DNA of 64,000 nucleotides from Candidatus Omnitrophota bacterium. GTDB taxonomy: Bacteria; Omnitrophota; Gorgyraeia; Zapsychrales; Zapsychraceae. The notes under the pieces are model-generated. The model saw nothing but the letters and a program-made list of their open reading frames with translations. It was not told where the DNA came from and did no database searches. The position numbers and the translations under genes were made by a program. The stretch's first letter is position 1, and every line of letters starts with the position of its first letter. The DNA lies in assembly GCA_021108075.1 (NCBI GenBank), contig JAIORP010000206.1:831-64830 (forward strand). Direction: 5' to 3'. Positions 1-43,400 of the stretch are shown in pieces.

Positions 1-1400
1 GCCTTACCCTTGAGCAGGCGAACAACACTCAGCACACCTTCGGTTAATTTCAGACGGTCATTGTGCATAAACAGGCGTTGGTATTTTCTTGAATAGCCCG
101 TATGATCCCAGTAATCTTTCGGATACGTTCTTAAGGCGGCTGGAACAGATGTGTGGGTCGCGAAAACCAGACGTGTGCCTTCAAAGTAAGGATTTTCTAA
201 CACGGCCGGTGCGGTTAATGATGTGGCGGCTTCGTTTAAGTGCAAGACATCCGGTTTAATGTTCAAGCCCTTCATCACAGCGGCGGTGCCTTTACCCAAT
301 AACAATTCTTGCAGGAAGCGGTCCCATTCACCGGTTTCGGCATAAATTTCATCGGTAATGATTTCATTCACGTCTTCGATATAAATGACGGTTGCCCGGC
401 CGCCCTGACCAGAATCAAACACCTGGCGCCATGCCTGCACCTGCATCATCATCATGCGGCGGCTTGGGCCGACAGGCATTAAGATGTTAAACATCCGGGC
501 TTCACCTGTCTCGTCATCAACAATCAATTCAATGTTCTCGACATTGTTTTGGTAATCAGCGACATACCGCTCTCTTCGATATTGTCCGTCTTCACCTTTA
601 ACCGGTTTGCGTCCGTGGCGATATTTCAGCGTGAAGAACAGCATGTCCGCGCCTGGCAGGTCAGTCGCGCCGTAAACCGTGTCAGCCGCCAGCTTCCCTA
701 ATCCTCCGGCGAAAACGGAACCGGGGATCGCGATCTCACTGCTGACATAGGTCACGACCTTTCCGGCCATTTGATGAACGACTCTGCTGACCCAGCTGCG
801 GGCTTTAACCGGCATACGTGGTAATACCGCACCGACCTTGACGGTCTTCACTCCGGTCCTTCGGCGTAATTTCAAGTCTTCTACTAAGGCTTTAAAGACC
901 ATTTTAAATTTCTCGTAACTGACTGGTGTTTCTCCTTCAAATCGTGGTTGAATTTGATTAAACCATGATCTTAATTCCTCAACATGCGGGTAAGGTTTCA
1001 AAATCGTATTAACATAAGCGATGAAATCACCAATATGATGTCTGATAGATTCATCCATATCATCCTGCGTCTGATCATAGAAATATTTCAGGCCGGCTGC
1101 CTTGGCGTTCACGCGGTCATATTCATGGCCATCTTGATCAAGCAAGGCAAAACTGAACGGACCAACACTGTCTGTCGTGTAGAGCAAACTGAAAACCTGC
1201 TGGTCGCTTAAACCAGCAGCAAATATTTTCGCCTTTTCTTTACCCTTTCTGACGTCCTCGACCAACTCACTAAGCGACAGTGAATAGTCCCGACCGAACC
1301 GCGTTGCCTGTTGCTGTTGCGCTTCATCCAATGCATCTATCGGTGTCGCCTTAAAGGACGTGCCTGATAAGATGGAAGATTTAAAGGTCACATCGGCTAG
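1..1400 (-). other. GT35 alpha-glucan (glycogen/maltodextrin) phosphorylase-like domain; N-terminal part, continues beyond the window start.
   Basis: Translated at + ~590-725: EIAIPGSVFAGGLGKLAADTVYGATDLPGADMLFFTLKYRHG, the GGLG(R/V)LA(A/G)(C/D) ... DLG(L)P ... YRxGYF signature of GT35 phosphorylases. Translated at + ~135-257: KPDVLHLNEAATSLTAPAVLE and LVFATHTSVPAALRTYP, cf. (I/Q)HLN(E/D)(G/T)H and T(N/T)HT(P/V)(V/L)P(A/E) of the family. Confidence 0.6.
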
Positions 1401-19400: not shown

Positions 19401-22400
19401 CTCCCGCATGACTTTGGCGAAATCAATCAGGACAAAGAACGGTCTGTAGTGCATATAGAATGTGGCCGGCACCTTAAAGGTGTATGTCAATTGATCAGCA
19501 TCTGTTTGAATAGCAACATTTTCAAAACAAACCGTTTGCCTTACTGCTTGCTCATGCGCGGCATCCTTTGCTGTTGATTGAACGGTTGCTGATGATGGCT
19601 CGCCGGTAGCGATAGGTTTGAATTGTTTAATACGTTCGTCCGGATCATATTTATATAAGGCTTGATGCAAGAAAGAAATGATATTTTGAATTTCCTGATG
19701 AGATGATTCGGCAATGAAATGCGGAAGTTCACTGTCTGTCAAAATAAGTTTGAGAACATCAATGGTGAGTTCCATATCTTCTGTTGACCAGGCGCCTTGA
19801 TTGATCAAGGCAATGCGCAGGGCTGTTCCTTCAACGAAACGCTTCCTCCAAATGGAACCGAACTCTAATTTCTCTTGTGTCACAATATTGTAAATCTCTA
19901 AGACCATACCCATGTTATTCAAGTGCCCGGCAATATTTAATGTGAATAAATCATCGATGGTCTTCGAGAAAGTGTAAGGGATGTTGACCATCCTTTGAAC
20001 GCGGTTAAATGTCCGCGTTTGTTGCGCCAGGAAATCATCCATGCGGGCTTCATTAACATTGTCTGAGACATTAAATATGCTGACAGCGCCGATTTCATGG
20101 ATCAAGCTGGCAGCTATTTGAAGCGGTGTTAAATATTGTCGGTATTCAAGATAATCCGAATGGTTGGAAAGAACGATGTATTCTGTGCCTTCATGGGCGC
20201 AAACGGTTGCCAGAAAACCTTTGAGTGGTCCGGCTCGGACATGTCCGGCGTTGATCATCGCTTCTAAACGGTCAGCCATATTGTTTTTATTGATCGCTCT
20301 TAAGTAAGTCAATGCGAATTCTTTGACGATCTTAACATCAACGATGTCTTTAAGCGCATCAAAGGCAGACCAAACATAACGTTCAACTTCAGCGTCACGT
20401 TGTTGTTTGGTTGGCGCTGAGAGGTCCGGATGTTTGCGGGCAATGTCTACTCTGGTATTGTAATAATACGATAACCAGATCCAGTTCTTATATTGTTGTT
20501 CACGGGAGGCAACCTTTTTACCCGTCTTCCTTAACACGGATCCAAAAGGATTCAATGGGAATATCCAGGAAATGAAGACTTTCAACAGGCCATTAATATC
20601 ACTATCATAATCCCCGGTCACCCATCGACTTCTCGGTTGCTCGGCAGGTCCGGTTGAAAAATCAATAATGTAAATTTTCTTTTCTCTCGTTATAAATAGA
20701 TGTTCTACTTTAACATCACCATGAATAATTCCCAGGTCATGATTCAGGCGTCGATAAGCATCTCCTATTTTCCTGACGAGTTCTTCCTCATTCTCAATAA
20801 AGAATCGAACCCAAGAGCTATTCCCATGCAGTTCAGCCAAGGATATGCTGTCTTCTATTCCCTTCATAATGAGGACATCCGAAAGAATAAGACTTTCAGG
20901 CGCTATGCCTGCCCTCGATGCTCTTAGCGTCAATTGATATTCCAGCTCAGTCGCGTTTCCTGAAGGAGCTGTAAAGTTCTTAAATTTAAAATAAAGAGTC
21001 TTTTCACCACTATCCGTTTTCAGTGTTGCCCTGACAACCCAGCCTGAAAGCGTTGCTTCTTCTCTGACGATTTCCAGTGCTAATGCGGTTATCGATTGAA
21101 CGCCGAGGAAGTCTTTCAATAATGCTTTGTTGATAAAGATGGACCGTATCTTTTCTTTAACGTCATCATGCCAGGATATAGGGGAATCATTAATAGCCTG
21201 CCCGAGTAGAACGCTTTCGGCATCGACGGTTGTTTCTCCCGCCAACCATCGTTGCGTGCGCGCTTCATTCTCTTCATCTGTTAGATTGAACTCGCTGACC
21301 GCGCCGATTTCATGGATCACGCTGGCCGCGATTTGAAGCTCTGTTACGTATTCAGCGTAAGCCGTTGAAATAAGGATGTATTCCGTTCCGTCTTTCTCAT
21401 AGATAGTGGCCAGGAAGCCTGCCAGCGGTCCGGCGCGGACTTGACGCGCGGCTAACATGCCTCTTAACCTGACGGCCATCTCTTCTTCACCCGCAACCCT
21501 CAACGCCGTCTCTAACACAACTTCCATTGAGGCGATATCAACATATTGGTCGATGCTGATAAAGTCCGTATCCCAGTTCAACGCTTCAACAGCGGCATCA
21601 CGCTGTTCTTTGCCCGGTTCAGGAAGATCAGGGTGACGGCGGGCGAGATCTTTTCTGCTATCGTTAACATTGGAATCATCAGGCATCGTATCTTGTCCGG
21701 ATTGATCTTCTCTAATGTTTATTTTTACCCTGATGTCTTTTTCAGCGGACGATTTTAATATAAAGATAGACGTCAATTTCTCGCTAAATTTAATGATGGC
21801 GACAATAATTCTTGGACGCTCTTTAGGGTGAACAACGGGAACAACCTGTTCATGCTGCTTTCTGTCGCGCGCGAATTGCAACTCACTTTCAGGCGCGTAA
21901 AGCATCAGGATGGCATTCATTCCGTCATAGCGTCCTTTTTCTATTTCCCCAAGGCTCCATTGAACCGCGCCATTATGTTCGTGGAACCCTCTAGCTGTTA
22001 CCGGGCTGTATGTCGCGAGGTATGGAATTCTTTCACGTTTTGTTTGTTCGGCTTGAGTGAGGACCAATCCACGGGCCAATCCTCTAACCGGTTTGCCGCC
22101 AACGAGATAATAATCACGTCTTTCTTCAGATATTAACTTGACATTCGGCGCTCCAAGGGCGAAATTAAAGCGTGCGTTTGCCTTTTGATCGACGCTGCCT
22201 TCTAATGTAAAATTATTGGTTAACGCGTGAACGCTGGCAAAGAACCCGGCCGTACCAGTTTGACCGCCGGTAAGCTCTTGCGTTCTAATAATGTTAATAA
22301 TTTCCGGTGTTAAGTACTTCTCCACGCTCCAGATCAAGGCTCCCAGAAACACGCGTTTGGTTTCTTTATCGATAACCTGAGCAACGACGATGCCTTTTGC

Positions 22401-25400
22401 GTTATGTTGAATAGCACTTCTTAACTGATCAACCGTCACTGTCTCTTGCGGGGTTGTTATCCAGGCATCATTGTGAACGGCTGTTAATTCTTCAGCCTCT
22501 TGTGTGACGGCCCAACGGTATAGAACATACGCATCATCACGTTCATCAACCTTGAAGAAAATTAACTGATCGGCAGGGATAAACCATTTGTAACCAAAGT
22601 GTCTGCGGACAAAACGTCTTAAATTGGAAGGAATAACGTTACGCGGGATGCAAAGTTTTGGCATTGGCGTTCCGACCCTGAGATGTTCGACACGTCTCGC
22701 GTTGTATTGTTCAATGACCTGGTCCCACGTTCCTCTAATGATATAGCGACGAGACAGGAGATAACCGCCAATGCCGATGACAATGGCGCCGACGATCGCA
22801 CCGGCCATCGTCCAGACAAGGCTGCTGATTTCTATGACTGCGCCTGACTGCGCAATAGCGTTGACGTCTTGAGCCTGTGCAACATTCGTGATACCGAACA
22901 AGACCGCGCCTATGCCAAGCATTGCAAATAATACGGATACCAGTGTGAATCCACCTTGAGCATTCTCTGGACAGGATCCTGGTGTTTTAAAAGTTGTGTC
23001 TTCTTCGTCAAATCCCTTTCTGGATATGCTTAAAAATTTGAAGCCTTTGATTGTATCTTCAACCTCACCCTTGGCTGTGACTATTTGGCTGTCAAGCGAT
23101 GTATCGCGTGCAGCCCGTGTTTGGACGCTTGAGAGGAACTCTCTTTCGCGTTCGGCATTCGTCTCATCCGTTAGATTGAACTCGCTGACCGCGCCGATTT
23201 CATGGATCAAGCTGGCCGCGATTTGAAGCTCTGTTACGTATTCAGCGTAAGCCGTTGAGATAAGGATGTATTCCGTTCCGTCTTTCTCATAGACAGTGGC
23301 CAGGAAGCCTGCCAGCGGTCCGGCGCGGACTTGACGCGCGGCTAACATGCCTCTTAACCTGACGGCCATCTCTTCTTCACCCGCAACCCTCAACGCCGTC
23401 TCTAACACAACTTCCATTGAGGCGATATCAACATATTGGTCGATGCTGATAAAGTCCGTATCCCAGTTCAACGCTTCAACAGCGGCATCACGCTGTTCTT
23501 TGCCCGGTTCAGGAAGATCAGGGTGACGGCGGGCGAGATCATCTTTATCTATCAGCTTAAAGAAATTCAGAATGGAGGTTAACGATCGCGTTAAGAACAC
23601 AAATGGTTTTCCGCTCCTGGCCTCTTCTTCGGAGATATCACCGATCACAAACGGAATATTTTCTAATAACTGTGAAGCGATTGTTTGATATTGCGCGGCC
23701 ACTTCTCTTTCTTCCCTGCCGTTCATGGCTTGTTCTAATAATACGATTTTCATGTCAACGCCCATTTCAAAAATAATCTTGAGAAGGACTTCGTAGATGC
23801 CGGCTAAGCAGTCATAACTCATGCCGCCTGTAATTATTACTGTGTTCATGCCTTTCGCCAACAGGTGCTTCACTTCCTCGCGCAGCATGTTCTCTTCCGC
23901 TTCCATCGCCTGCTGCTTAACACGGATGATCAGGTCGGCCTCTTCAGCGGTATATCCCTGCGTCTCAAAAATCTCCGGCGTCATCGTAAGTTTCTTCCAG
24001 AAATACTTATTAAACTTTTTCTCATAGAATAGATATCCATATTTTTCCAGTTTTACCAGCAAGGCACCTGACAAGACGCCTGGTGCTGTTGGACCATAAC
24101 CATATGAAACGCCCAATTTAATTTGTCGGCATGGAATATCCCGTGATCTTAACAGTTCTAACAATTCTTCCTCGGCATTAAAAGACTCGAAGTCATGATC
24201 TTTAACCGTCAGGATCGCCACCTTGGGCCGGTCAGAGGAAGCGGCCGCATCTTCCCGGGCCGGTGTCGTTCCTGTCGAGCGGCGGCGGGCGATACTGTCT
24301 TCGAAACGGTCTAACATAAAGGAACGGATATCGGCTAATCTTTCAAGCACGGTGACTTCAGCCTGGCGGAATTTCATCAATGGATGGTCCTCAACATATT
24401 TTGTCCGGACATCAAACCGGTCACTTCCCCAAATAGCTTTTACTGGCAAGACAATATGGAGGTCAGCATTATTTTCAAAAATATAATAAACAATAACCTG
24501 ATATAACGACAGGAGACAATCATCGCAAACACCGCCGGTTAATATAATTGTCTTTATTCCGTCCTCGACGATCTGGTCAAGTATCGTTCTGACCTGTCGC
24601 GCTTCTTCTTCCAACGCGGCTGTTCTTATTCTTAAGACGAACTCAGCCTCTTCTTTTGTATAACCCCTGACAAGCAACCATTTCTCGGTTAAGTCAAACT
24701 TGCTCCAGTAGTAATGGTTCAACTTATTCTCGTAGCCTAACAGGTCGTCATTATCTAAACGTTCAGCTAATTCTTTCGGGATGGCATCAACGGATGTTTT
24801 ACCAAATCCGAATGAATCAGCAACCTCAATATGCTCATAAGAAACGCCTTCTTCTTTTAAGAGGTTAAATATCCTTGATTCAAAAACAATCGCTTTACGG
24901 TCATAATCGGTAACACTCAAAACGGCCACGTCTTTTTCACCAAATTGCGTCGCTGTGTCAGGAGAGCAGAACCAGCCGGATTCCTGCAATTTCTCCGCTT
25001 GATTAAGATAAGACGCTGTCACCATCGAAGATGTCGCGATGTATAAGGCGCGGATCAATTCCTGGGCCGGGTTAGAACCGCTGAATTCACCAAGATCGCG
25101 GCTGTTGATAGTCAGGCGAACGTCACCCTGCGTTGGAATGTCATAAGTTGCCTTGTTATGATCCCACGGGATATAACTCAAGTTCGGCGGATATCTTAAG
25201 ACATCGGCAGGATAGACGACCGTCGGAACATTTTCTTCTTTAATGCCTGAAATGTACGCGTCGGATAAGAAATAAGCGACTTGCCGGGCGACAGAAGCGA
25301 TATTGAGATCAAGCGGGCATGTCAGATCCACACGTCCGACATAAACTTGCTGGCTTAACTCAAAAATCAGCTTCAATCCTTTTTGCAGGAATGTGTCATC

Positions 25401-28400
25401 CAGTTGATTTTCTTTAATAAAATCCAATTGATTAACTCTTTGGGCATAGGTCGCCAGGATGATAATGTGCGAGACCAGAATGTCGCCTAAGAAGGCCGAA
25501 CTGATATAATTATAAACTTGAGCAACATCGTTATTGGTCATGCGCAACAATTGGCCGATACGTGAATCAAAAATTTGACGGCGGTCTTTACGTAAAATCA
25601 ATTCATCGATAAAGTAAACCTTGGCTAAGTCGGCCATACCCGTCAGGCGCATGTTTGGATAAAGGCTGGCCGCGGTCACGTCGCGGATAGTCCCTGTTGA
25701 AGGTCTGTTAACGCGGCGAGGATCAACTTCCACCATCCAATCCCAGGCGCGCTCATCTCTCATTTCATGGAAGAGTTCAATCATTTCCGTATCAAACAGG
25801 CCGTGTTGTGCCATAACCAGGCGGTCATTGATATTGACCTGCAGGGCCTTCAGGAATGTCTCCCGCTTCAAGCTCGGATCATTTAAATAGGTGTAATAAG
25901 GATTCCATGCGGTATCGAATGCTCCGATTTCTTCCGTGGCTTGCTTCAGGTCAACTTCATACATCATAAAGATATAATATCCATCAATGAGTTTAACGGT
26001 TAAGTCCCCTTTTTGTGTCTTTAATGATTCCATGACCTCGACCATCGATGGCGGCATGCCCTCCCGGGATATCTTACCGAGTTTGATGCGTCCGGTTGGA
26101 TAATAACCCTGCAAGGCCCATTCTTGTGATGTTTTCTTGGCCTTGATGTATTGCATCATATTAAATTCATCCGCTAAGTCGCTAAAGGATTCATTCTCTT
26201 TGTTTATTTTAGCCATATAAATTTTATCTTCCGACCGGAATTCCAACGTGCGTCCATAGGCCTTTTTCTCAAAGGACGCGACCATCACAACCTGATCACT
26301 TTCTTGCTCCACGAGGACAGATTCGTCATACCTGTTTCTTACCATAATATATCCCGGGATTTGATCAATATCCGCGTCTGTCCATTCTTCTTTCTTCGGC
26401 AAGTCCGATGGCTTATGGACAATGACCGCCGGGACCTGTTTAAATAAATCATGCATGATGTCCTGGTAGTTATGAGAAGCTTGTCCGTCCCGGTAAATCT
26501 CAAATATCTTTAGGATCAATGACTTAACGCCCTGACGGTATTCGGAAATAACGGTCTTAATCTTTGCCGCAATCCCGTCAGTCACGTCTCCGACGAATGA
26601 CAACGCTTTTGACTTCATGGAAACAAATGACGCTTCGATAATATCCTGTCGGGTCCTGGCATGATAAAGCAGGATATGGTCAATGGTCTCTACCATAAAT
26701 TGTAATAAGGCTTCGTATGCTTCCATATTGTTCTCTTCATATTTGCGAACCAGCTCATCCAGGCCATAGACATGCAGGTTAATACCGACACCGGAAATGT
26801 CTTCATATAGCCGTATAATCATTCTGTCATCACCCTTTGATTGAGATGTGACGCGGAATGTCGTGTCTTCGAGGCCATCACGCATGAGTTCTGCTGAATG
26901 GCTGAACAGCTGTGTCAACTGATACCAGCGCTGGTCATCGAATAAATGATGCTTGCTGCCTTCTAAAATAAATTTCTTAATCGATCCGACGCTTAACGGA
27001 TAGTCAAAATAACGGCCGGAGTTATAAGCCTTTACAGACTCTTCGGGAATAATATTTTCTTCGGTGTCGAATTCATTAATTTTTTCCTGTCGTCCGGTAT
27101 AACGCGCGTGTAACTCAATCTGACCCGCGCTTATAATGATGAGGTTCAACTGGCTGAAACCGTTTAAGACGTGAATATGTCCTAACACAGTCGGTGTTAA
27201 GACTTCAAGAGGAATGGTCATGCGGTATCTGAAAATGAACGACCGTAAACTTTCGAGGTAGGCCGCTCTGCTCGCCTTCAATGTTTCCGTGTCTGGCAGA
27301 TTGGCTTGTTCATTGAGTGAATGATAATTGCTCTTTAAGCTTCTCACATTCATTAACATTTCGGCATCGACTTTCAGAGAGCTGGTGACGATATAATCCG
27401 CGACCTTTTCTAACGTCGAAATATTTTTCACTTCCGAAACGATTTCCTGGACTTGAATGTCAGAAGCACGGTACATCTCAACAATCATTCTGATCAGATC
27501 GGTGTTCAATCCGCGGGCCTGATAATCCGCTGATATCTCTGTTTGATGGATTTGAAGACGAATACCCTGCGCTAAAGTAACAACAGAAACTCGCTTAAAG
27601 CCGACGTCCTGCCCTATATCCATTCTGTATATTTTCGGCTCATCTTCCTGGCTCACGTTTAAGACGTATTCATTGCCGTCCTTATCTGTTACGTGTTGAC
27701 CGGTCAGATTTAACAAAATTTCTTCTTCGTAAGAGAGCTTGAATTTGTTTTCGATCTCATGTAATAACGGCAATTCATATTGTCGAAAAATTTGTTCTTC
27801 AAGGTCATACAATGCCTTGACTTCAAATCGGACACGCATGCGCTTAAATTGTTCAGCGAAGGAGCGCGGGTTGCCAAACCTCGCTTGTTGATAATATTCT
27901 TCAGCGCTGACGTCAACGTTCATATCAGCGCGCCAATCTTCTAATCCTGCGTCGATATTATTTAAGTCAACCGGAATGCTTGTATGAACCCAGTTATCCG
28001 TGATTTCCAAATTCTCTTTAACAGACATGCTTGATAACGCCTTCTCTCCCATGACCAAACCATTAATAATGGAACGGAAAACAACCGATCCCCGCGCGAT
28101 CTTCGCGGCAGCTAACGTGCTGTCAATGATAACCGCGCCTTCAATGTCATTCTTTCCATAGATCGTGGTGTTAATAATCGTGCTGTTGCGGATTGAACCG
28201 TCTTGCGGAACATCAGAATTAACCAGACGGTTGCCAAATTGATCCGGCTGAACATCTTCGATATAAGCGAGTATACGGGCGAATTCCCCTTCATTGCTAT
28301 CTTCATTAACAAGATAATACGTATCACGCGCTTTGGTCAATTGACCAATTTCACCCCAGAACAATTCATGACCAAAATCAATAACTTTGATATTCATTGG

Positions 28401-31400
28401 ATGACCCCGTACAATTTCTATGCGGCGTTTAAGTTCCTGAACGTGTTCATAGAAGCGTGGATAGTCGGCTAAGAATTTACGCAATTTCTCATCGCGTTCA
28501 ATCTCTTCTTGCCATTGTGTTTTGTCATGCGTCATGGCCTCAAAGAGATAGCCATCGACATCAATCATGCCTGGAAGGTCACCAAAAATCTCTTCCGCAA
28601 TATCGAGGAACAGATACGAGAAGGCCGGATTACCGATATGGACCAACGACTTAACCTCTTGCCCTTTATCTTCAATACCAAAGCGGCGTAATAACTCCGA
28701 TCGGCTGCGCCGGCGGACTTGCATTCTCAAGTCTCCGGTCGCATCGTCGCGGAACAACCATTCTTTGTTTTCGGCAAGGTCATCCGTAACCGTGACAAGG
28801 CTTCCGAAACGGACAGCATCTGTTTCGCTTAAGTCCATGTCTAGTTCCGATAAAAGATTAGACGCAATTTGAACTTCGTCACCCCACTTCCAGGCTAAAC
28901 CGCGGAATCCCATGCGTCTTAAATGGTAAGCGACCAGATGCCACACATACGGTGAAGCGGTTGCGCCGGATAACCAGCGTCGATCTTTACCTGTTCGCAT
29001 TAAGATCTTCAAGAACGGTTTGATTCCAAAGACGCGTTGGGTTAACGGACTCATACGGGTTCCGGAACCTGGCAACATCGCGCCAACCGACACGCTGTTA
29101 CGGTCAAAGTCACCGTAACGTTGTTTCCAGTCGCGGTAGGCATCCAATAATCCGAGGAATTGTCCGCGTCGTCCGACTTCCGGATAAGCCATGATGCGAA
29201 CGCGTTCGTCTGCGCGCAGTAAACTTTTTGTCTTGATCGCGAAGTCTTCTTCAACACTGACTTCGTCCCCGCCGCTGGTGATCGCGATCAGCTCATGAAC
29301 ACCTAGTGATTCCTTAACAATCATGCGTAATTCTTTTATGTTGGCGATCAGATTTCTCAAGGCCTTGCGTGTTGTTCCTCTAGGCCCTTGACCATCTGAG
29401 GCCTTTGCTTCTTCGTCTTCAGGTAACGCGATCGGTCTGCGGCTAACCTTGGCCATTTCTATTGCGATCACGCTGTCGGTAATTGGTAATACGCCTGATT
29501 GAACCAGATAAGATTGAAGTTTAGCGGTTCTGCTGGCGATCATACCGATCACGTTCAATAGACGGTAAAGGGCATAAACGAATAAATTGATAAAACCACG
29601 TTTATCTGACGCCATCTCTGGCTTGTACAGCAGGATATAACCCATCATTTCGTAGAAGGTCCACGTATTTCCGAATGAGGTGACCGCGTTATGTTTAACC
29701 GGCATAACGTAGACACCGAATGGCGAAAAGATCACGGTATGGGCGATGTCTTGTTCTTGTAAGGCTTTGATATACGAGGAAACTTGTTCCGCTAAGGCTT
29801 CAAGGTCATCGCGGGTTGAAAAATAATATCCTTGAGCCGGCCAATCGCGGAGCATTGAGATACGAACACTACCGCGTGTTTCTATCAACTCTTTATGTGC
29901 CCGTTCTAATGGTGATTTATCTTCTGGCAAATACATCCCGTGCAAGTGCAAGTCATGAATGGAAGCACCGGCAGCCAAACTGTTAAATGTGAGTCTGAAC
30001 CGGCCCGTTGTGTTTTGGGCCACCCAGCGAATGGCTCGTATGATATCTTGCGGCCGCAATACTTGATCCACAACATTTTCAAATCCGTCCATAAGAAGAA
30101 GGAAGTGACGTAAGGCATACGGATATTTTTGTTCCAGCAGATCAACCTTTTCGCTATCAATCTCACCGCGGTAGAAAAATTCTTTTTCATCCTGAATAAC
30201 AGCCGGATAGGTTGGGTCACCTTCTCTTCTCGGTTGCGTGACGCTTTCATAGGACCGTGCCGGCATTGGCCGTTTGGTTCTCCATGGAGTCAAGACGCGT
30301 TTAAATCGTCCCGCTCTTGACATCGACGGCACGCGTGTCGGCGGCAGAAGTTCTTCAATCATTTTCTCCAAGGTCCCCATGCCAACGGTTACGATCTTTC
30401 TTAACGCGACCTTAATACCGTATTCATCCCGGCTGACTTCAACCTTAACGTTCTCTAATACATTCAGGCCTTTACTTGTTTCTTCGACTAATCCATCAAG
30501 TTCTTGAGCCTTGAATGTTTCGTCACTATTATTTGTAATATAAACTTTTCCGCGAACTTCCGCCCGGCTCAGGTCGATTGAACCTTTAGATGTCACATCG
30601 GAATATAGTTTCGATGATGATTCTGAGGCGGCCCGTGTGGTCACGCGGGAGGCATCCGTTTCCGGAGCGAAGTTTCCGGACGGTGTTTTTACATCGACAC
30701 GGCTTTCTTTTTCATCATTCATTATCGGCCGTGTCTTTTGTGACATTTTCAGCCCGGCACTGCTGATCTTAGCCCTTACCGCCTTAAAAATGTTCCGCAA
30801 GGCTTGCATTCCGGAAGCCTGCACGGCAAAGATAGACTTAATCTTCGCGTCCATTTCAAAGTAGGTTGCGACTGTGCGTCTGTCCGCTTCAGCATGAGAA
30901 CCGGTTGTCAGCTCGCTGACTTCGTGGAAGGCGATGACTTCATAAGCGCCTTTGCGTTCTTGTTCTGTCCGGAAGGTTCGATTAAATCTCTGATAAACTT
31001 TCTTGGATGAGAAGTAGATCACAAGGGTCTGACGGCCTTCAATGGTTTCAAGTCTGGCCCAGATAAATCCTTCCGGCGGGGCATGCGCTACAGGCGTGTT
31101 GAAGTATTTGACTTGAACGGGGATGTTTGTTCCACGATGATTAATATCGTTATATCGCGTTACAAATTCAACGCGCAGGGCATTATCCGCTAATGCATTC
31201 AACCCAGACTCAAGCGTTTTTCCGATATTACCCATGTAACCGACAGCCTCAGGAGAAGCAATCTCCGTTCGGCCGTCAACCGTGTAAGCCTTGACGATCT
31301 CATAGAATTCTTTCAACGCTTCAATGTCTCCGGTCTGACTGGCTGTCGTGGTGATACTTACAAATCGGTCCCAATCTTCCGAGTTATTTAGGGCAATGAC

Positions 31401-34400
31401 GTCTAAATATGTTTCGCGGATAAATTCTTTTGTGTCCCGATCATACAACAATACGCCCATCGTCGCGACCTGGATATACTTATCCAAACCAGTCGCCGCC
31501 TGCAACCGGTCCGGTGTCGTGAGAATGACCTCCGCATCAGCAGGCGTAATATAACTTTCGTGATCCTCAACATTGTCCACTAACTCCCGCAAGAATTTAT
31601 TGTTGTCTATTTCTTCCTGTGTCCGTCTCGCGTGTGGGTGGGTTAAACCGATTAATGTTCCGTCATCCACTTTGTTGAGCTTGACGATGCGCGCAAACTC
31701 GCCATTGAAGATTGATGCTGAATGATCTGTTCCAACCTGGCCAATTTCCAACGGCACATTGTAACGGACAACAACATCTAAATGATTAGCCGTGTTTTCT
31801 TGTTGTAAAATTCTGTCGACCAATGGAATGCTGTCATCCTGGAACTTCACGCGTTCGCTTTCCGGTAAATACTCGATCAAGTCTTTTTGCAGGATCAGCT
31901 GGGATTCCGGAATAAAATTGTAGGTTAAATTGTTCATGCCCGCATCCGCTTCTGAAATCTTGGATATGACTTGAACGCCGACTTCACGCGTGTCTTCTCT
32001 GGCTGCCAGGTAAACATTTGTTCGGTGATACGCGCTATGAACCATATCATCCAATAAAACCTTACGGACACGGTCGTTCCAGCTTTTACCGGCAGGATCG
32101 ACTTGACCAATACCGGCTGATTCTCTAATTCCAAGAACTTTTGGAACTGCGACTTTATTAAAATGGGTTGGGTTATCGCCGTACAGAATACCTAAAGCCT
32201 CTACCATCAGCGATGTGCCTTGAATAAAATCGGTGAAACGTTGTCTGGCTTCGGTCACAGGATAAGTATCACTGTTTTCACGTTCAACTTTGAGACTTTC
32301 GTTTAATTGCTGAATGGCCCTGAGATGGGCTTCTCCATTCTTGAAGATGGATTTGATTCTAGCGTCCCGTTTTGGAAAAGCTTGTCGCGTGCGTTGATCA
32401 GCTTCTTCGTGACGGCCTGTATTCATCTCGATGGTTTCATGAAATACGATTGCTTCTAAAGCTGATTTTTGTTTTTCTTCTGTCTTAAACGTTCTTAAGA
32501 ATTTCTTGTACAGGGCTTTTGATGAGAAATAAATCGTTACTGCGTGTTGGTTACCGTCTGATTCAAATTCCGCCCAAATAAAGCCTTCCGGCGGAGCTTT
32601 ATCAAAACTTGTCTTGAAGTATTTAACTCGAACCGGTCTATTCGCATCAACGAAAAATGAAATGATGTTGGAATATTCTTTTACGAGTTTAACGCTGCCT
32701 GGATCTTTTGCTGTAGATTTAAGTTTGCTTTCAAGGTCCTGTGGAATATTACCCATGTAACCGACAGCCTCAGGAGAAGCAATCTCCGTTCGGCCGTCAA
32801 CCGTGTAAGCCTTGACGATCTCATAGAATTCTTTCAACGCTTCAATGTCTCCGGTCTGACTGGCTGTCGTGGTGATACTTACAAATCGGTCCCAATCTTC
32901 CGAGTTATTTAGGGCAATGACGTCTAAATATGTTTCGCGGATAAATTCTTTTGTGTCCCGATCATACAACAATACGCCCATCGTCGCGACCTGGATATAC
33001 TTATCCAAACCAGTCGCCGCCTGCAACCGGTCCGGTGTCGTGAGAATGACCTCCGCATCAGCAGGCGTAATATAACTTTCGTGATCCTCAACATTGTCCA
33101 CTAACTCCCGCAAGAATTTATTGTTGTCTATTTCTTCCTGTGTCCGTCTCGCGTGTGGGTGGGTTAAACCGATTAATGTTCCGTCATCCACTTTGTTGAG
33201 CTTGACGATGCGCGCAAACTCGCCATTGAAGATTGATGCTGAATGATCTGTTCCAACCTGGCCAATTTCCAACGGCACATTGTAACGGACAACAACATCT
33301 AAATGATTAGCCGTGTTTTCTTGTTGTAAAATTCTGTCGACCAATGGAATGCTGTCATCCTGGAACTTCACGCGTTCGCTTTCCGGTAAATACTCGATCA
33401 AGTCTTTTTGCAGGATCAGCTGGGATTCCGGAATAAAATTGTAGGTTAAATTGTTCATGCCCGCATCCGCTTCTGAAATCTTGGATATGACTTGAACGCC
33501 GACTTCACGCGTGTCTTCTCTGGCTGCCAGGTAAACATTTGTTCGGTGATACGCGCTATGAACCATATCATCCAATAAAACCTTACGGACACGGTCGTTC
33601 CAGCTTTTACCGGCAGGATCGACTTGACCAATACCGGCTGATTCTCTAATTCCAAGAACTTTTGGAACTGCGACTTTATTAAAATGGGTTGGGTTATCGC
33701 CGTACAGAATACCTAAAGCCTCTACCATCAGCGATGTGCCTTGAATAAAATCGGTGAAACGTTGTCTGGCTTCGGTCACAGGATAAGTATCACTGTTTTC
33801 ACGTTCAACTTTGAGACTTTCGTTTAATTGCTGAATGGCCCTGAGATGGGCTTCTCCATTCTTGAAGATGGATTTGATTCTAGCGTCCCGTTTTGGAAAA
33901 GCTTGTCGCGTGCGTTGATCAGCTTCTTCGTGACGGCCTGTATTCATTTCAATAATTTCATGGAAGGCAATAACTTCATAGGCATCTTTTTGCTTTTGAT
34001 CTGTTCTAAATGTTTTTAAAAACTTCTTGTACAGGGCTTTTGATGAAAAATAAATAACGAATGGTTTTTGGTCATTAATGGATTCAATCCGTGCCCAAAT
34101 GAAACCTTCCGGTGGAGCTCGGCTTAATGTTTTTGTGAAATATTTAACTCTAATCGGAGAGTCGATTAAGAATGGAATGGTCTCCGTAATTTCTCTAACT
34201 TGTTTGACATTGCGTGCATCATTCGCATACTCGCGTATCTCTTCGACTGTCGATTGGCCAATATTACCCATATATCCCACCTTAATCGTATCATCAGATC
34301 TTCTGTCTCTTGTTGTGTCTTTCGCCTTCTTCACCGCAGCTTTGACGGAAGACAATCTTTTTTCCGGCAATGATATGGACATTTCAATTTTTGTGCCTTG

Positions 34401-37400
34401 CTCGGCATCCGGGGTCGTTTCTGTTTCCGCTTTGACGCGGGCCATTTCTTCGTCTAACAATTCATCAACCGGTTTTTGTCGAACAGCTGTTGGCGCCAAT
34501 TCACCGTTTCTCATCACAAACGCGGCTAACCCTAAACGGCGCATGGTGTAGGCCATATTGAACTGAATGTCTTCGACCAATTCTTTCGTATTGGCCCGCA
34601 TGGTTACATACGCGCGTTGATCTGTGAATAATGTGAATAAATGTCCGGCAACTTCATCCAGGGATTTAATTTGATAGCTTAATTCATCTACCGGCCGAAT
34701 AAGCTCTTTGCTGATTGCGCGTGGAACGACCTTTCCTTGCCTTTCAATCTCGTCAACAACGTTAACCAGATACCCTGTTTCGCCATGCTGGATTTGCCGC
34801 CCTATTCCACCAACGTTGTAAGCAATCACCGGAACGCCCTTATCGATCGATTCAGAAACTTTAATTTCGTAACCTTCAGCTAATGATAATTGTAAGGCCA
34901 CACTTGAGCGTCTTAAAATCGCGTTCAAGACGTGGTCGTTATGTGGTAAGCGGGCAACCTTCACGTCTTGAGCGAATTCAGATGGATATAAACTTTGAAT
35001 ACGGTCTAAAGTATCGATATACAGTTTCATCCCGTCGGTATCATCAACAGCGCCATGACCGGCTAAGATGAGCTGCGGCAGTATTGCGGCCGTTATATCG
35101 TTTTCCTTAATATATGATTTCATCATGACCCAGAAGCGGTAATAAGCTTCAATCACGCCAGGAATGTTCTTGGATGGATCCATACGCGCGACTTGAATGA
35201 TGCTTGGACGATTAAGATCTAAGGCGGTCATCAATTCCGGATTGATGCTGATTTGTCTTTGAGTGAACCATTCTCGCATCTCATCCTGGTGTTCTGCTAT
35301 ATAGCGGGCGATCACGCCTGACTCTGTCGCTGTTCCGGCTTCATGGGCCAGGAAGAAATTGAAGCGGGCTAATGCGTCAGCGGTTGTTTCCGTTGAATGC
35401 TCCGTGTTCAAGTCATCGACACGGTCTGTTGACGGGTTCATAATGACTGTCGGTTTATCGGCGATAACATTTTCAGGAACAGATTCTTCGATTGGATCTG
35501 TTGGCTGAATGATAACGACGTGCGCGTATTTCTTAATGGTTTGCCACAAGAAATCCCAGTTAGTTCGCGCCACGGTGCCTTCGCTCATATCCGCCTCGAA
35601 ATGGATGTGTGAACGATAGATCCACCTGACCGTCTTGCCGTATTTGTCCGCCATAGCCTGAATGTATGGCATCATTCCGGAGGGCTGATAGTCATGGTTG
35701 AAAATTACGATTTGATCTTTCGCTTTAGCGATAGCCGATTCTAATCTGGCAGCGTTGACCCTCCAATTTTCTCTTAAAAGCGCTTTGTCTTCCTCTGTTA
35801 ACGCTCGCACCAACCGGCCCTGGAATGTGTTGTGGAAACTGTTCTTTGTGATGTTAAAGACTTTTTCATTACCTGTCATCACAAACCAGTGGGCATCTAA
35901 TCCTAAGGCAAAACGAATGAGTCTTTGGAAGGCATGCAGCATTAAAGCCACTCCTCCTCCTTGAGCGGTTGAATTAATATCAAAAATCGTCACATCTTTT
36001 AATTCTCTTGCCCAGGAGAGGATGTTCTTCCAAATGCTCGCTGATGTTGTTTGCTCATAGCGGGCTTTGGACATCAACGGTGTGACAATGACTTCTTCTG
36101 TTTCTTTGTGTGTTCTGACTTTATAAACATCAAATGGCCCTTCTGTTTTGTAATGGCTAGCCACCCAGCGGGCTGTAACTTGAGATTGTCGGGCATTGGC
36201 GGTCATGTTACCGGCCATCATGGCGAGGACGATGTCTTGCTCTGGCAGCGTTTCAAGATCAGCCGCTTGCGCTCTCAACCAGAACAAATCAAATCCTGTA
36301 TCATATCTTAAGAACGTTCCTAACTCTGTTGCCACTTCCTCATTCAATCCAATAATCGCAGTGCTTGTGATCCGTACGTTTTGTCTCTGCGCTAAGATCC
36401 TTAACGCCTTTGCAATCGCTTGCGTATATGCTGTGATGTCCTCTTGCGCTTTTGGCGCGGCAATGGTGCTTGCCCGGCCGTCTGTTAAGGCAACGTAAAT
36501 ACCGTCTTTGACAACATTGATACCCGCGTGTGTTGTTGGGCGGACCGTGTCTGTTGTGGCCTGCAACGCCGGGCGGATGGACCAAATTCCGCCGATCAAT
36601 ATGATGGCGACAACCGTTATGACAACACCTGCGACAATCGTAACACTGATCCAGGGAGCGGCTGTTGCGGCTGTAACCATTGTCGCTGTCTGCGCTGTGC
36701 CGGCAGCCTTCACGGTCGACGCGGTCAAGGTCAACATCACCAAAAGAATGCTGAATAATCCGCGTTTTGCACCTTTGCGTCCTTTTTGTCTGTCCGAAGA
36801 TGTCTTGATTGTCGCGCTGTCTCTTCTTCCGCCCTTATCTCCGTTATCATCGTCTTGATCGTTTTTGATTTGTGTCTGATCAATAACTTCGACTTTAAGT
36901 CCTTGATATTCTTGTCCGAATAATGTTCTAAAGAAATCCGCGTGGTAAGCGCCGACAATAAACCGGACTGATTTACCTGATTGAACAGCGCGCGCAACGA
37001 TTTGTTTAATATTTTCTTGCGCCATTTGCATGCGCCATTCAATAATAATATCTTTAACAATATAGTGAACAGCCGCTTCAGATGTTGGATGATCAATAAA
37101 TGATCGAATCATCCCGACGCGTGGTTGTTGGCCTTCTGGAAGTTCTTCTGTCATGCGGGTCAACTCAATGGCCAGGGCCCTTAAAACCTCCGTCCAATTG
37201 GACATGAAGTTTGTCCAGGTTAATAACGTCCAGGGCGACTGATTAACAACATCGACTAATTTTCTTTCTGAACGGCGAGATATATATGTATTAAATTGAC
37301 GGTACAGTTGACGAGTAGAGGCTGTTAATTTCTGGTCATTAATAGCGTTCCAAGCCGACCTGAATGTCGTGTTCGTGCGGGCGTAAATCACTAATTGTTT

Positions 37401-40400
37401 GATGACGTCGTTTAAGACTCGCGTTTCTTGATGTGCCAGGAGTCCGTAGCGGCTTAAGACATAGCTTAAGACAACCGCTAACTCATCTTCAATGCCGTAG
37501 ACCTGACCTTTAGACTGGTAACCGAAAAGCAGCTCAACGATGGCTTCAACGGATTGCTGATTATGAACGACGTTCTCCATACCCACGACAATGTCGCCTT
37601 CATTCGCGCGTTGAACATATTGTTTCAAGAATGGCTGATAGCTTTCAGATGAATGGTCCACTGCGAAAACTTTGATGTCCGGTTGTTGTGGAATAAGGTC
37701 TGGATGAGCGTATTGAAGAACAGACGCTAATAACTCAGCAGAAATGGTTGCTGTTGCCTGAACGTTTATGTCTGTTAAGCCTAATCGTTGTTGAATCAGC
37801 TTCACATATAATTTTTCATAATTAGCCGCCATATTCTCTAATGTGTACAGGCTTAACACGCGTTGCCGGCCTGCGCGGCCCATCAATGCTCTTGTTGGCT
37901 CATCCCTGGCCAGTCTGACAATTGCTTTTGCTAACTCATCAGCTGATTTTGGTGCAACGAGTACGCCGGCTTCTGTTCCTAATGTTTCAGGGATGCCGCC
38001 GACATGGCTGGCAACGATTGCTTTTTCAGCTACCATGGCTTCCAGCATACTTAACCCTTGACCTTCAGAAATGGATGGCAATGTAAAAATGTCCATCATC
38101 GAAACAGCTTCAGCGACATATTTATGTGGAATGACGCCTGGCAGGATAAAAATCCCTTCCAGGCTCATTGCTTTGATTTCCTGTTCCAGACTTTCACGTT
38201 CTTCACCTTCTCCGATGAGAACAAAACGGGCGTTTGGCATTTGTTCATAAATTTGCTTGGCCGCGCGGACGAAATATTTCTGGCCTTTAACAGCATGTAA
38301 ACGAGCCAATGAACCGATAACAAACTTACCGTCAAATTCTTTTGCTAACGCGCGAAGCGTCGGATGCGTCACGTGTGTAATCGGTGTTTCGAATAGTTTA
38401 ACATTAATACCGTTTGGAATAATTTCGATCTTACGTTTGGCAATGCCTGTTTTGATGTGTGCGGCTTTTTCTTCCGCACTTAAAGCGACTAAGGCATCAT
38501 CGACCAATCGAATTCCCCATGTGGTTGAATGATAGCCAACCAAGCCGCGAATAACGCTGGACCATTTATTGATATCCGGCATCGAGTGATAGGTTGTGAC
38601 CACAACGGGAATACCGACTAAGTATTTAGCAATTATTTTTTTCACCAGGACTTTCAATCCACCGGTCAAATGAACGTGCAGAACATCCGGATCAATTTGT
38701 TTATAAAGTTTGTATTCGCTATATGTGCTTAACGCAGCTCTTTTTAGTTTATTCAGGAGCGATAAAATTTTTGCCGTCTTAGCCGCATATTTTGAATAGA
38801 ATTTACGTGGCAGCTTATACATCGGTTTAATAACAAATTTAACTCCGTGTTCTTTAGCGGTTCGAATGTCGTTATCATATTTTTCTTCCGTGTTTCTTGA
38901 TACGGTATAACAAGAATAAATGTTATTGTTTGTATGTGTCATCAGGTCCAAGGCCATCTTTTCAGCCCCACCACGGCTAAAGCTTCCGATGAGATGCAGC
39001 ACGCGAACGCGTCGGCTTTGTGAAGCAAGCTCCGCCTTCTTCTTCTTTAAGTGTGTGCGGACCGCCAACCATTGTCTGAAGGCTAAGATCGATAAAATGC
39101 CAAGTCCGGCAAGGACAAAGTATGGGGCGATCGCAATAACCGTTGATATTGTTAACCATGGTGTTGCCGCTGCCGTGACCATTGTTGTTTGCGCTGTTCC
39201 GGCCGCTTTGACAATGGCTGGGATGACAATCATTAACGCCGCCAGCGATACGATCTTTGTTGTCCGGCTCAAGCGGTCTGATTTTTTGATAACAGTATCC
39301 GTCTTATCCATTTCAGCCCGGATGTCTCTGAAGATGCGAACGAGAAAGACGACCAGGGCCGCTAACGCAATCACAATGCCGGCGGTTACAGCGATTGTTA
39401 TCCAGGGAGCCGCTGTTGCGGTTGTAACCATCACGGCTGTCTGTGCTGTCTCAGCTTCCTGTGTAATGGATGCGATCACGCCCAGGGCAATTGTCGGAAT
39501 ATAAATCAATTTCATGGTCAACAGGTATATCTTGATGAACACTTTTTTCACGCCATTCTTTTTAACAACACCTGTTGCTCCGCGATCATCGCCTTTGCCA
39601 AAGGCTCTTGTTATTACGGCTTGATACGGAGCCAGTGTGATGACGATATCTTTTTGGTTTAATCTTTCGCCGGTTAATTCCATGGATTTAACAAAATCTT
39701 GAACGCTTAATCTCTGGTCGGCTTGATAACCGATTTGATAGAGTTGTTTTGCTTTGAGGCGCACAACCTTTTCGTCGGCTGTTAAATTCACTAACCCTAA
39801 GATCGTTTGTTCCTGATCAACAGATGTCCGCGCGATAGCAGCAACGCCCTCAGCGACCTTCAACATTGTTTGTTTGGCCTGCGGAGCTAAAGCTTTAAGC
39901 AGCTTGCGTGAATGCAACATATCGATCAGATCCGGTGTCGGACCCTTAACTCTCATAATCTTATTCACCGCGTCCAATAGTGTTTCCGGGGCGCGGTGAA
40001 CGCTGCGCAATGTGGATGTTCTTTCGTATTCAGCCATATTATTAGAGGAAGCGAGGAAGTCTTTCACATCAAATCCAGGAACACCTTTAATCAGCATTAA
40101 GAGGGCGTAGATAGCGATATATTTTTCTTTCACGGCATTCTCTTCTTCTTGTATCGACATGGCCGTCATTATATCCCAAATCGTGGTATTTAGTTCATAG
40201 GCCTTTTGTGTCTTGTAAAGCTTGCTGCCGAATAAGGCTTCTGTGACTCTTGAGGCGGATTTACGGAGCGTCGAGACATTGTTGATGGAACGGTTACTGA
40301 TCAATGTGACACCGTATTTTGCCTTTGAATATTCTTGCCACAATTGAACCAATTGATCTTGCTTGCCTCCAAGCACGTCTTCACCTGAGCGAAGGGCGAT

Positions 40401-43400
40401 TCCATCATGCTGTCTTAAAAGGTTCAACATTGTGACGTCTGCGGCTCCGTTCAATTGATCCATAAACCTGGTTAATTCTTTTGCGTCGCCTTTGTAAAAG
40501 GAATACAGCAGCACGTTCGCAAGGGCGAAGTTATACAGCATTTGACCTTCACCATTATTTGTTCCACTGTATGATAAGGCGTCTTTATACGGCGCGTTGA
40601 TTTCCGGTAAGATCACGACCTCAGGAGCGACTTCATCAAGGATGGCTCTGAATAATTTAACCATCAGGTGGGATTTGTCATGATGAACGCTGGCGGTTCC
40701 TAATTCTTTCCACAGGTAAGGGATCGCATCGACTCTTAATATCTTTGTGCCATGGCTTAATAAGACGAACAGGACCTCGATCATCGCTAAGAGGACTTGT
40801 GGATTTCTCCAGTTGATGTCCACTTGTTGAGCGCTGAAGGTTGTCCAAACAAGCACGGTCGTTCCGTCAGCTAACCGGTATGGTGTTAATAACGGATGTG
40901 ATCGTGGACGAACAACTTCGTCGAAATCCTGTTTATTGACAACTTGACCATATTGATCCATGTATTCATTTTCAAATTCATAAACGTTCTGGCTGACTTC
41001 TTGTCCGTCCTGATCAAAGTAGTGGATTACTTCCTGGCCGTCTTCAACGCTTGCCTGTTGATAATATTTAGGAACATAGTAGATGAAATAATCTTTGTAT
41101 TCTTCAACATTATTTAAGAACGCGGTGAACCATGGATGGTCTGAAGCGATATGACCAACGATGAAATCTAACATCAATTTCATATCATGTTCGCGGACGA
41201 TCTTTTCAACCATTGCCCAGTCACCTTGTTTCGCGTCAACCCGGGTGTGATCTTTTGTTCCAAATCCTTCGTCGACTGAGTATGGGAACAAGCGTGGCAA
41301 AATGTGCAAAATTGTGAATGGCTGGCCAACTTTGCCTAAGGCATGCAAGAAGAAGTTAAGCGTTTCTAATGGATACTGATCTGTTGTATTCGTGAATGTG
41401 TCCGGATAGCTGATTAAAGTGACATCGTTTTCTGTTAAGGCAACATTGTCCGTTTGCCATTTCTTAATGGCTGAAGAGTATTGAGCGGTTAAGGCTTCCA
41501 ATTGAATCACAATATCAGCTGTTTGCTCCGCCCCATAAATGCGTCGGAGAATATGGCTGGTTCTATTTCGTCCTGAAAGACGGCCAGTCTTTTTAAATGT
41601 TTTCATTTCTGCTCGAACGAACCATGCGGAGAAGATAACTGCCGCGGCGCTGATAAGCGTGACCGCTCCAACTACAGCCCAAGGAGCAGTTGCCACCATG
41701 ACAGCTGTCGAAGCTGTTCCGGCAAAGTCAACGCTGGTTGGGATAAGCATAAGGATACTGACAGCGACAATAATTTTGATGAGCCGCGGAAGGATACGGC
41801 GTGTCTGTGGCGTTTCAGCGACCATATCTTGTTTACCATCGGTCATGGCCTTGTTGTCATCTGTCTCATCTATCTCAGCCTGCATGTGGCTTAAGACAAC
41901 CCAGAGGCTGACACCCGCGACAATAACGCCGATGATCATCGCGGCAACAATAACAATGCTGAACCATTGTACTGCCGCCGTTGTTGTCACAACGCTTAAT
42001 GTTTGATTCATTCCGGCACCAAAACTTTTAACCGGCAGCATCATCAAGGCTCCGATAATAATTGATGTTATCGTTGTGACCATTGTCTTGCGGCCGGAAC
42101 GAGCGGCGATTGCTGTCTGACGATCAATTTCTTGAACATCGCCGAATCTGGCCACGCTTAATTTATCATCCTGGACATTGTTAATGTGTGCCCTGTATTC
42201 AGATGGTGAGTAAGCTTTAATCTCCCGGGAGGTATCAGCGGCCGCTTCAACCAAAACAGCCAGGCGGACATCTTTATCTTTTAATGAAGCGGCAACAGCG
42301 TCTGTTCTGTCATTGATATCCCGTTGGACTTCCGCGTGGTCAATATCTTTGACGTCATCGTAATCATCACTATCTAAGTAATAATCATATTCAATGCTAG
42401 CCACAACGTTATCAGACACGGTTAATTGATCGAAGTCTGGATGGTTATCATAAGAGAATAAGTTGAATGGTGTTTCCAATAAACCAGCCTTGATCAATCG
42501 CTCAACAGGGGCCACCAACCGGTCGTGGGTTGCGACACGGATGATCGGCGCGTTCAAGCTGAAGGAATAACCGTCAAGGACTTGAGCAACCGCAATGATT
42601 TGCTCTGAGGTGTACTCAACTGTTCCCGTTGATAATCTTCGTAAGCTTAATTGAACAAGGATAGCTTCTCTTTCGCTGTGTTCAATCCTGTTCAATATTA
42701 AGGTCTGATGGACTTTTTCGTGTTCAAGCACAAAACTCCAAATCTGTTCAATAAGATCCATGGAGATGTCGGCTTTTTTCAGCGTCGGGACCACAACATC
42801 TTCGTAGGAAATGGTCACAATCGTGTCTGTGTCAATGTCATATGAAGCCACTGTCGCCGGTGGAGCTGTTCTGTTGAAGTTGATCACATCTTCCAGTGCT
42901 CTTATGGCTTGAGCATATTCTCTTAATATTCGGGCTGCTTCTGCCTGCCCGGCTTCTTCTAATGCCTTAACGATATTAAATAACTCTTGTGACATCATAT
43001 CTCTGCGGGTCTTGTTCGCTGAATGCTCAGCTGATGCTGCCGGGCCATAATCAACGGTCTTGCCGCTGATTGGTTTTGGTGTGCCGCTTAATCTCCAACC
43101 CGTGTTGTTATCGTTATAAATGATTTCTGCTTCAGTCACATATTCTTGCGCATCCATATCAATAACGCGCATCAAACCGTCAATAATGCCGGCATAGTTT
43201 CCGTCGCTTAACCGGATCATTAAATTGCCCTCATCGTCTTCCATGTCTGGAGTTGGATACTCAATCATGCCACCGTCAACATCAATTTGATATTCTGTAC
43301 CCATTGTGTCGGTTACAATAATTGTTCCGTCAATAAAGGAGACGTCCGTTCTGGTTTCGACATGTTGTCCATCAACAGCTAAGTGCTCGTCCTCTTCCAT

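Follow-up and report, generated by a model that had tools for sequence, protein, structure and literature searches.

Probable recent gene conversion between neighbouring modules of a giant multi-enzyme gene from a Candidatus Omnitrophota bacterium

The DNA analysed here is a window of 64,000 nucleotides on contig JAIORP010000206.1 of a Candidatus Omnitrophota genome assembly (GCA_021108075.1). It is occupied by a fragment of one giant open reading frame (ORF) on the minus strand, in which two domains, here called X and Y, alternate in an array X1-Y-X2-Y-X3. Two tracts of this array are identical in every base, next to parts of the same units that are strongly diverged, and this pattern is probably the product of recent gene conversion between neighbouring units.

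A seed-and-extend scan and base-by-base comparison at an offset of 1,521 bp showed that positions 31225-32426 and 32746-33947 agree at 1,202 of 1,202 bp. The offset equals 507 codons, hence the copies are in frame with each other, in agreement with the preliminary description of this DNA, and the array is read on the minus strand without an internal stop codon. The identical core of 1205 bp given there (31226-32430 and 32747-33951) corresponds to a real long exact repeat, but its limits overshoot by 4 bases at one end and enclose 1203 matches in 1205 positions. A repeat of 1.2 kb without a single mismatch cannot have arisen by chance. Tandem Repeats Finder reported no repeat, the period being larger than its 500-bp limit, and no inverted repeats were found in the window. 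The features of the array and its surroundings are collected in Table 1.

Table 1. Positions in the window of the identical tracts, the domains of the array and the host gene features
Feature	Position	Strand	Evidence
Giant ORF fragment, 21,332 codons, stop-free, open at both ends	3..63998	-	stop-to-stop scan
Trehalose-synthase-like GT4 module, aa ~9341-9760, directly upstream of the array	34719..35978	-	PF21269 TreT_GT1 E=1e-30, PF00534 E=2e-11
Domain X copy 1, aa 9900-10062	33813..34301	-	X HMM E=1.9e-80
Domain Y copy a, aa 10041-10416	32751..33878	-	Y HMM E=6e-187
Domain X copy 2, aa 10405-10569	32292..32786	-	X HMM E=1.2e-75
Domain Y copy b, aa 10548-10923	31230..32357	-	Y HMM E=6e-187
Domain X copy 3, aa 10912-11074	30777..31265	-	X HMM E=2e-77
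N-terminal part of X1, diverged, beyond the identical block	33948..34277	-	54% protein, 52-76% DNA identity to the X2 counterpart
Identical block, gene-proximal copy (aa 10018-10418): C-terminal helices of X1, Y, GYMGNI of X2	32746..33947	-	1,202/1,202
N-terminal part of X2 (319 bp), diverged; unit 2 departs from unit 1 nowhere else	32427..32745	-	alignment
Identical block, gene-distal copy (aa 10525-10925): C-terminal helices of X2, Y, first motif of X3	31225..32426	-	exact identity

The remaining ca. 319 bp of each unit are homologous and diverged, with matches in 219 of 339 aligned columns overall. In successive windows of 30 codons their DNA identity is 52, 65, 72 and 76%, climbing toward the identical block, and amino acid identity ranges from 43 to 73%. 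Diverged flanks had been reported before at an identity of about 70-75%; their presence was confirmed, but the measured DNA range is wider and the units can be aligned beyond the block on one side only, that of the ca. 319 bp, the likeness on the other side being gone within a few codons. The switch from complete identity to divergence is sharp and occurs between codons 10017 and 10018, at the HE..E motif, and between codons 10418 and 10419, at the GYMGNI motif, where identity falls directly past the motif on the 3' side of the gene. In gene orientation the block starts one codon past E121 of HE..E and ends right after GYMGNI of the next X. Its edges are offset from the domain borders and enclose the C-terminal half of X, all of Y and the opening motif of the following X, and both ends fall within the two most conserved sequence islands of X. 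An identical tract flanked on both sides by homologous, diverged sequence, as expected for gene conversion, is thus present.

In the diverged 319 bp the substitution spectrum is symmetric and transition-rich, with no adenine bias. Mismatch rates are 0.26-0.28 for A, 0.42-0.45 for C, 0.37-0.39 for G and 0.26-0.30 for T, and there are several indels and many synonymous changes. Identical residues share the same codon in a fraction of 0.54-0.70, compared to 0.41 expected from codon usage. Spectrum and codon sharing together indicate old divergence, not hypermutation. A copy of Y adjoins the X2-specific segment in frame at either end; the segment differs from X1 by 35% and fits nowhere else in the sequence.

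The domain order X1-Y-X2-Y-X3 was established by alignment of the three units and by hidden Markov models (HMMs); X3 is followed by an unrelated module. The 507-codon unit had been regarded as a single module, and its length is right, but it consists of two different domains with the block offset from their borders. These two points, as well as the size of the host gene (at least 64 kb), were absent from the preliminary description. Domain X comprises ca. 165 amino acids and is characterized by the motifs GYxGN, APPEGFIWA, IYFSS and HExxE...H..A. All motifs quoted earlier were recovered from the minus-strand translation, and all of them lie within X. Among 19 diverse copies of X, residues G12, G15, P66, Y87, S89, H117, E121 and H127 are invariant and N16, A65, F88, S90 and A130 near-invariant; the conserved residues of X1 include G9908, G9911, N9912, P9962, Y9983, S9985, H10013, E10017 and H10023. 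Domain Y comprises ca. 375 amino acids, with the motifs HxH and [ST]PxD, and in the family alignment its near-invariant residues are N228, G237, H240, H242 and D274 (N10268, G10277, H10280, H10282 and D10314 in copy a, gene numbering). The N-terminal part of X2 shares 54% protein identity with that of X1 and 48% with that of X3, and in every comparison this part of X is the least conserved portion of the unit. X3 accounts for the diverged, partial third unit that had been recognized before; its protein identity to X1 and X2 is 47-50%, and no Y follows it. An HMM search detected no third copy of Y within the 64-kb window.

We infer the recombination mechanism and its recency from features that can be read directly from the sequences, namely the identity pattern, the frame, the boundaries, the domain order conserved in a relative and another mosaic repeat elsewhere in the gene. 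The array is old, given the difference of 35-50%, including many synonymous changes, among the N-terminal parts of its three X copies. A 1.2-kb tract would then have been copied very recently and non-reciprocally from one unit onto its neighbour, with its ends at HExxE of one X and GYMGNI of the following X and all of Y in between. A plausible route is gene conversion by homologous recombination within one chromosome or between sister chromosomes, wiping out the differences within the tract, and the conserved islands of X may be the sites where heteroduplex between diverged copies can start and resolve. The stepwise climb in identity at the 5' boundary (52, 65, 72, 76 and then 100%) suggests earlier conversion tracts with other end points. 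Recent conversion within an older array had already been put forward as a possible origin, and it is favoured by the sharp in-frame transition, the ordinary substitution spectrum, the relative's architecture and the second mosaic.

Concerted evolution by intragenic gene conversion between tandem modules is established for repeat-containing surface proteins and for modular synthases. The array described here shares with those systems an identical tract within older, diverged units, in-frame exchange, end points in conserved sequence and a higher likeness within than between genomes. Unlike the known cases, it has only two full units, the tract is offset from the domain boundaries, and the host gene of at least 64 kb is almost non-repetitive in its remaining parts.

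A second in-frame mosaic is found ca. 10 kb from the main repeat. Positions 21266-21650 and 23156-23540 (385 bp) are ca. 98.7% identical, with an exact run of 246 bp, at an offset of 1,890 bp or 630 codons, and their flanks are ca. 60% identical in protein. This looks like another, slightly older, conversion tract, and it indicates that module-to-module recombination recurs in the giant gene. The two 98.7% identical copies being kept separate also shows that the assembly can hold near-identical copies apart. A third, diverged copy of this repeat (ca. 50% identical) is located near 20017-20137.

The best match to the array is P0002, a protein of 4,260 amino acids encoded on contig L002 (ENA ERZ21869602, 30.7 kb). 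L002 is a different contig from an independent assembly and is collinear with the window over the alpha-amylase, the trehalose-synthase-like (TreT) module and the modules downstream of the array, at 55-90% protein identity. P0002 carries X-Y-X-Y-X in one intact frame, and the comparison of orthologous loci that had been recommended as a check thus also gives two copies of Y. The two-Y architecture in this independent contig indicates that the two copies are not an assembly duplication. The best cross-genome match of X3 is X3 of L002 (53-55% protein identity), and X1 is 43-46% identical to X1 of L002, whereas X2 reaches 32-40% with any of the three L002 copies and has no clear partner. The pairing of X3 with X3 and of X1 with X1 implies that the outer parts of the array predate the split of the two lineages. 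The L002 contig also shows differences in module content. Its part 1-26692, which corresponds to window residues 6995-14025 and 20925-21331, is without the glycosyltransferase family 4 (GT4) module found at residues ~8200-9048 of the window, there are ca. 1,180 extra residues between TreT and X1, and the homolog of residues 20925-21331 stands directly upstream of the homolog of residue 6995. Module content and order therefore vary between related giant genes.

The second match, P0001, is encoded on contig L001 from the same sample as L002 and has the arrangement X...X-Y in a context unrelated to that of the window. Contig L001 (9766-10829) ends inside domain Y, where a repeat of Y in that genome as well would be expected to break the assembly. 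In both L001 and L002 numerous neighbouring ORFs share a strand, a sign of probable frameshift errors from long-read assembly. The two Y copies are 100% identical in protein within the window and 79% within L002, as compared to 33-35% between window and L002. Likeness of Y is thus higher within than between genomes, although a cassette replacement has probably distorted this comparison: the Y of the window shares 80% identity with the Y of L001. The two Y copies of L002 are strongly diverged at synonymous sites, with a same-codon fraction of ca. 0.45-0.8 against 0.41 expected, indicating that they are old and under purifying selection. From these sequence comparisons we conclude that the interior of the array (the C-terminal part of X1, Y, X2 and the second Y) was probably replaced by a different Y subtype in one of the lineages, and that the two tracts appear to have been homogenised very recently in the lineage of the window.

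Several points weigh against conversion between neighbouring units. The copy number and the perfect identity are taken from the assembled sequence only. The 79% protein identity of the L002 Y copies is due to purifying selection or to old events and not to conversion that still goes on. The Y of the window is 80% identical to that of L001, with its unrelated context, but only 34% to that of the collinear L002; this contrast points to cassette replacement from another gene in one lineage, and the donor of the tract could thus lie outside the window. The array itself could also have originated by independent duplications in each lineage.

In the main alternative, both tracts would be recent copies of a third X-Y module, located in a part of the giant gene outside the window or in a second giant gene of the L001 type. 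In agreement with such ectopic replacement, Y and the C-terminal part of X of the window are 76% identical in DNA and 80% in protein to P0001, the jump in likeness to L001 begins within 6-14 codons of the same HE..E boundary, and X2 lacks a clear L002 counterpart. However, two independent and equally recent events with the same end points would be needed, or one such event followed by conversion between neighbours, which is the explanation favoured above. Moreover, the available 64 kb holds no third Y, and L001, being 20% diverged, is not the donor itself. We consider a direct ectopic origin of both tracts unlikely.

An artefact of assembly or polishing, in which a graph loop was traversed the wrong number of times or slightly different Y copies were polished to one consensus, had been kept as a fallback, and we regard it as rather improbable. 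An exact 1.2-kb repeat exceeds the inserts of short-read libraries, the contig L001 ends inside Y, and repeats are described as a known source of errors and breaks in assemblies of giant genes by West-Roberts et al. (2023, bioRxiv 10.1101/2023.11.21.568195). Against this stand the unique X2 segment, which has a Y in frame at either end, is placed nowhere else and is diverged from X1 far beyond what a strain variant would show, the two-Y architecture of the independently assembled L002, and the 98.7% repeat left un-collapsed 10 kb away in the same assembly. With respect to copy number an artefact is thus unlikely; it is conceivable for the last ca. 1% of identity, which is all that polishing could erase, and the conclusion of recent homogenisation would be unchanged.

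A very recent tandem duplication of 1,521 bp, with the 319-bp N-terminal segment of X then altered by targeted hypermutation or diversification, for example through a diversity-generating retroelement, would fit the low conservation of that segment in every comparison, but is scarcely credible given that mismatches affect all four bases, that synonymous changes are numerous and several indels present, that the window, being one ORF throughout, showed neither a reverse transcriptase nor a template repeat, and that inverted repeats were not found there. The array was also considered specifically as a target of such a retroelement and rejected on the similar mismatch rates of the four bases and the presence of indels. 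A single unequal crossover between X1 and X3 was rejected as well: it would make X2 a recent chimera of X3 and X1, and the N-terminus of X2 reaches no more than 48% identity with X3 and 54% with X1.

The host of the array was delimited by a stop-to-stop scan, as a standard ORF listing misses a frame that runs off both ends of the window. The scan gave only one frame of at least 250 amino acids, and its length lies above the 10,000 codons taken here as the lower limit for the giant multi-enzyme proteins of Omnitrophota. The composition of the protein is ordinary save for few cysteines (36), and chunked BLAST self-comparison showed it to be nearly non-repetitive, with few internal repeats. Pfam domains along the protein include an APH-type kinase, an alpha-amylase catalytic domain, a complete GT4 glycosyltransferase, TreT_GT1 with Glycos_transf_1, a Kdo-kinase-like segment and a weak Glyco_transf_5 (starch-synthase-like) segment. 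The protein thus combines many enzyme domains, including a sugar-metabolism set, with no dominant repeat. About 32 transmembrane-like segments were counted with a crude predictor (Kyte-Doolittle hydropathy of at least 1.8 over 19 residues). The TreT module is 71-82% identical to its counterpart in P0002.

By Nielsen & Lui (2026, bioRxiv 10.64898/2026.06.07.730766) a class of membrane-anchored giant proteins designated 'multi-enzyme metabolic cluster' is catalogued for Omnitrophota, and giant genes and Archaeovorins are treated by West-Roberts et al. (2023). The protein in the window resembles the Omnitrophota giant proteins in its ORF of more than 21,000 codons, its varied enzymes including a sugar-metabolism set (GT1, starch-synthase-like, amylase, kinases) and its scattered transmembrane segments. 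The host belongs with the membrane-studded, multi-enzyme giant genes known from Omnitrophota. According to the 2026 survey, strictly identical tandem copies occur in just 17% of long genes, and gene conversion is not discussed there. Neither X nor Y is among the families listed in the available parts of the two papers.

The modules downstream of the array (residues 11075-11990) gave no Pfam match in the window, and their L002 counterpart bears a precomputed GDPGP1_C match. The module at 28029-29198 (residues 11601-11990) is 87% identical to L002 and 42-59% identical to proteins in many GTDB genomes. It holds a 'LPGSGTRMSPLT' motif reminiscent of sugar-nucleotidyltransferases and has no Pfam match at E values up to 0.1. 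Homologs of this module are fused into giant frames in metagenome-assembled genomes (MAGs) of Omnitrophota, FCPU426 and Elusimicrobiota, and are found in frames of ordinary size (ca. 540-2,000 amino acids) in Nannocystaceae and other groups. The window has no marker gene; taken with the occurrence of X, the spread of this module makes Omnitrophota the likeliest phylum on sequence grounds. Elsewhere in the ORF, at 58194-58367, there are near-tandem repeats, one of 32 nt that is exact at a spacing of 105 and one of 43 nt at 93% identity and a spacing of 69.

Relatives of X and Y are few. An exhaustive HMMER scan of 1.84 billion representative proteins gave only 27 matches, and no match to the unit was found in GTDB genomes, IMG/VR or JGI metagenomes. 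A word-indexed protein search returned only P0001 with a single sequence as query, and P0014 and P0001 with a profile. All seven X proteins with an organism name are from Candidatus Omnitrophota MAGs, and in Omnitrophota MAG proteins X is found at the junctions of unrelated enzyme modules, in P0024 for instance behind GlgB. Domain Y also occurs outside giant genes as a free-standing protein of 350-540 amino acids; one of these, P0014, is named Zixibacteria. Another free-standing Y homolog, P0008, is present on 17 contigs in a conserved neighbourhood (L044-L046, gene 8001-9110 or 5505-6614), with two TPR-CHAT proteins, two small ORFs, a Por_Secre_tail protein (tail of the type IX secretion system, T9SS), a type ISP restriction-modification enzyme and RadC as neighbours.

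That the module is unassigned, as first described, holds for both domains. No match was found in Pfam for any alignment member of X or Y at E values up to 10, nor in NCBIfam or PADLOC, and PDB sequence profiles gave no family assignment for either domain. AlphaFold2 (AF2) models built from the family alignments have a predicted local distance difference test (pLDDT) score of 85.7 for X and 83.5 for Y. The predicted fold of X is a five-stranded sheet followed by helices bearing H117/E121 and H127. Foldseek comparison with the PDB gave nothing significant (best E 0.07 for X and 0.33 for Y, template modelling (TM) scores below 0.25), and comparison of Y with the BFVD viral models gave no match. 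At 34104-34283 (X1, alignment residues 10-69), the N-terminus of the X profile matches residues 78-137 of the short-chain dehydrogenase 3guy_A (E=1.3e-4), a local beta-alpha-beta similarity around GYxGN.

The zinc site of YbeY and the metzincins has the form H-x3-H-x5-H. As a working analogy, X can be compared with YbeY: in the window copies (HEIIEMNTGRH) residues i, i+4 and i+10 are H, E and H, carried by a helix-turn-helix behind a beta-sheet, and profile alignment places H-x3-E-x5-H on the three zinc ligands of Thermotoga maritima YbeY (1tvi), at a non-significant E of 0.8. Unlike in YbeY, the middle ligand is Glu in place of His and the spacing to the last His varies among distant members of X, and no YbeY or zincin structure was among the Foldseek PDB matches of X. 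The putative His/Glu metal site suggested earlier is thus compatible with the invariance of H, E and H in the 19 copies, with the YbeY ligand alignment falling short of significance. In the case of Y the likeness is to the JAMM/MPN+ motif, E ... HxH-x(7-10)-S-x-x-D. Y has a beta-strand ending in HxH followed by [ST]-P-x-D at a helix start, and a conserved upstream Glu in an 'E..G...G' strand, but the spacer between HxH and [ST]PxD is ca. 29 residues instead of 7-10. Assignment of Y to JAMM/MPN+ was rejected, as 15 members gave no JAB, Prok-JAB or RadC Pfam match at E up to 10 and Foldseek found no MPN fold; the resemblance is a lead at the level of the motif.

Judged by their conserved residues, X (invariant H-x3-E...H) and Y (near-invariant HxH...D) are most simply read as putative metal-binding, possibly hydrolytic, domains, and in the giant protein they are placed among enzymes acting on sugar nucleotides and glucans. 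A bolder proposal, which we consider a long shot, is that X is a degenerate YbeY/metzincin-like, metal-dependent processing domain that marks module junctions in the giant proteins of Omnitrophota, with its strictly conserved G-[YF]-x-G-N strand at the N-terminus as a self-bound cleavage or docking site. Giant ORFs would then be polyproteins that are cut to enzyme-sized pieces, and the X motifs would double as recombination points at which giant genes trade cassettes, Y among them.

As a mechanism, conversion between tandem paralogous modules is well known, and to it the giant-gene setting, the ends in motif islands and the evidence for cassette exchange between giant genes are a useful, unsurprising addition. 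The array provides a base-level, dated case of change in a giant bacterial gene, in which modules would be overwritten or swapped by homologous recombination at short conserved motifs and not just gained or lost, and this bears on how ORFs of 60-440 kb get built and stay intact. It is a concrete example of the rarer class of long genes with strictly identical tandem copies, and it indicates that exact kilobase repeats exist in giant genes, which will break or distort short-read assemblies. The most interesting by-product is the pair of families outside Pfam, NCBIfam, PADLOC and the PDB, X with named relatives only in Omnitrophota and Y also free-standing. Their confident AF2 models and conserved sets of His, Glu and Asp residues make them tractable for the biochemistry of giant-protein function.

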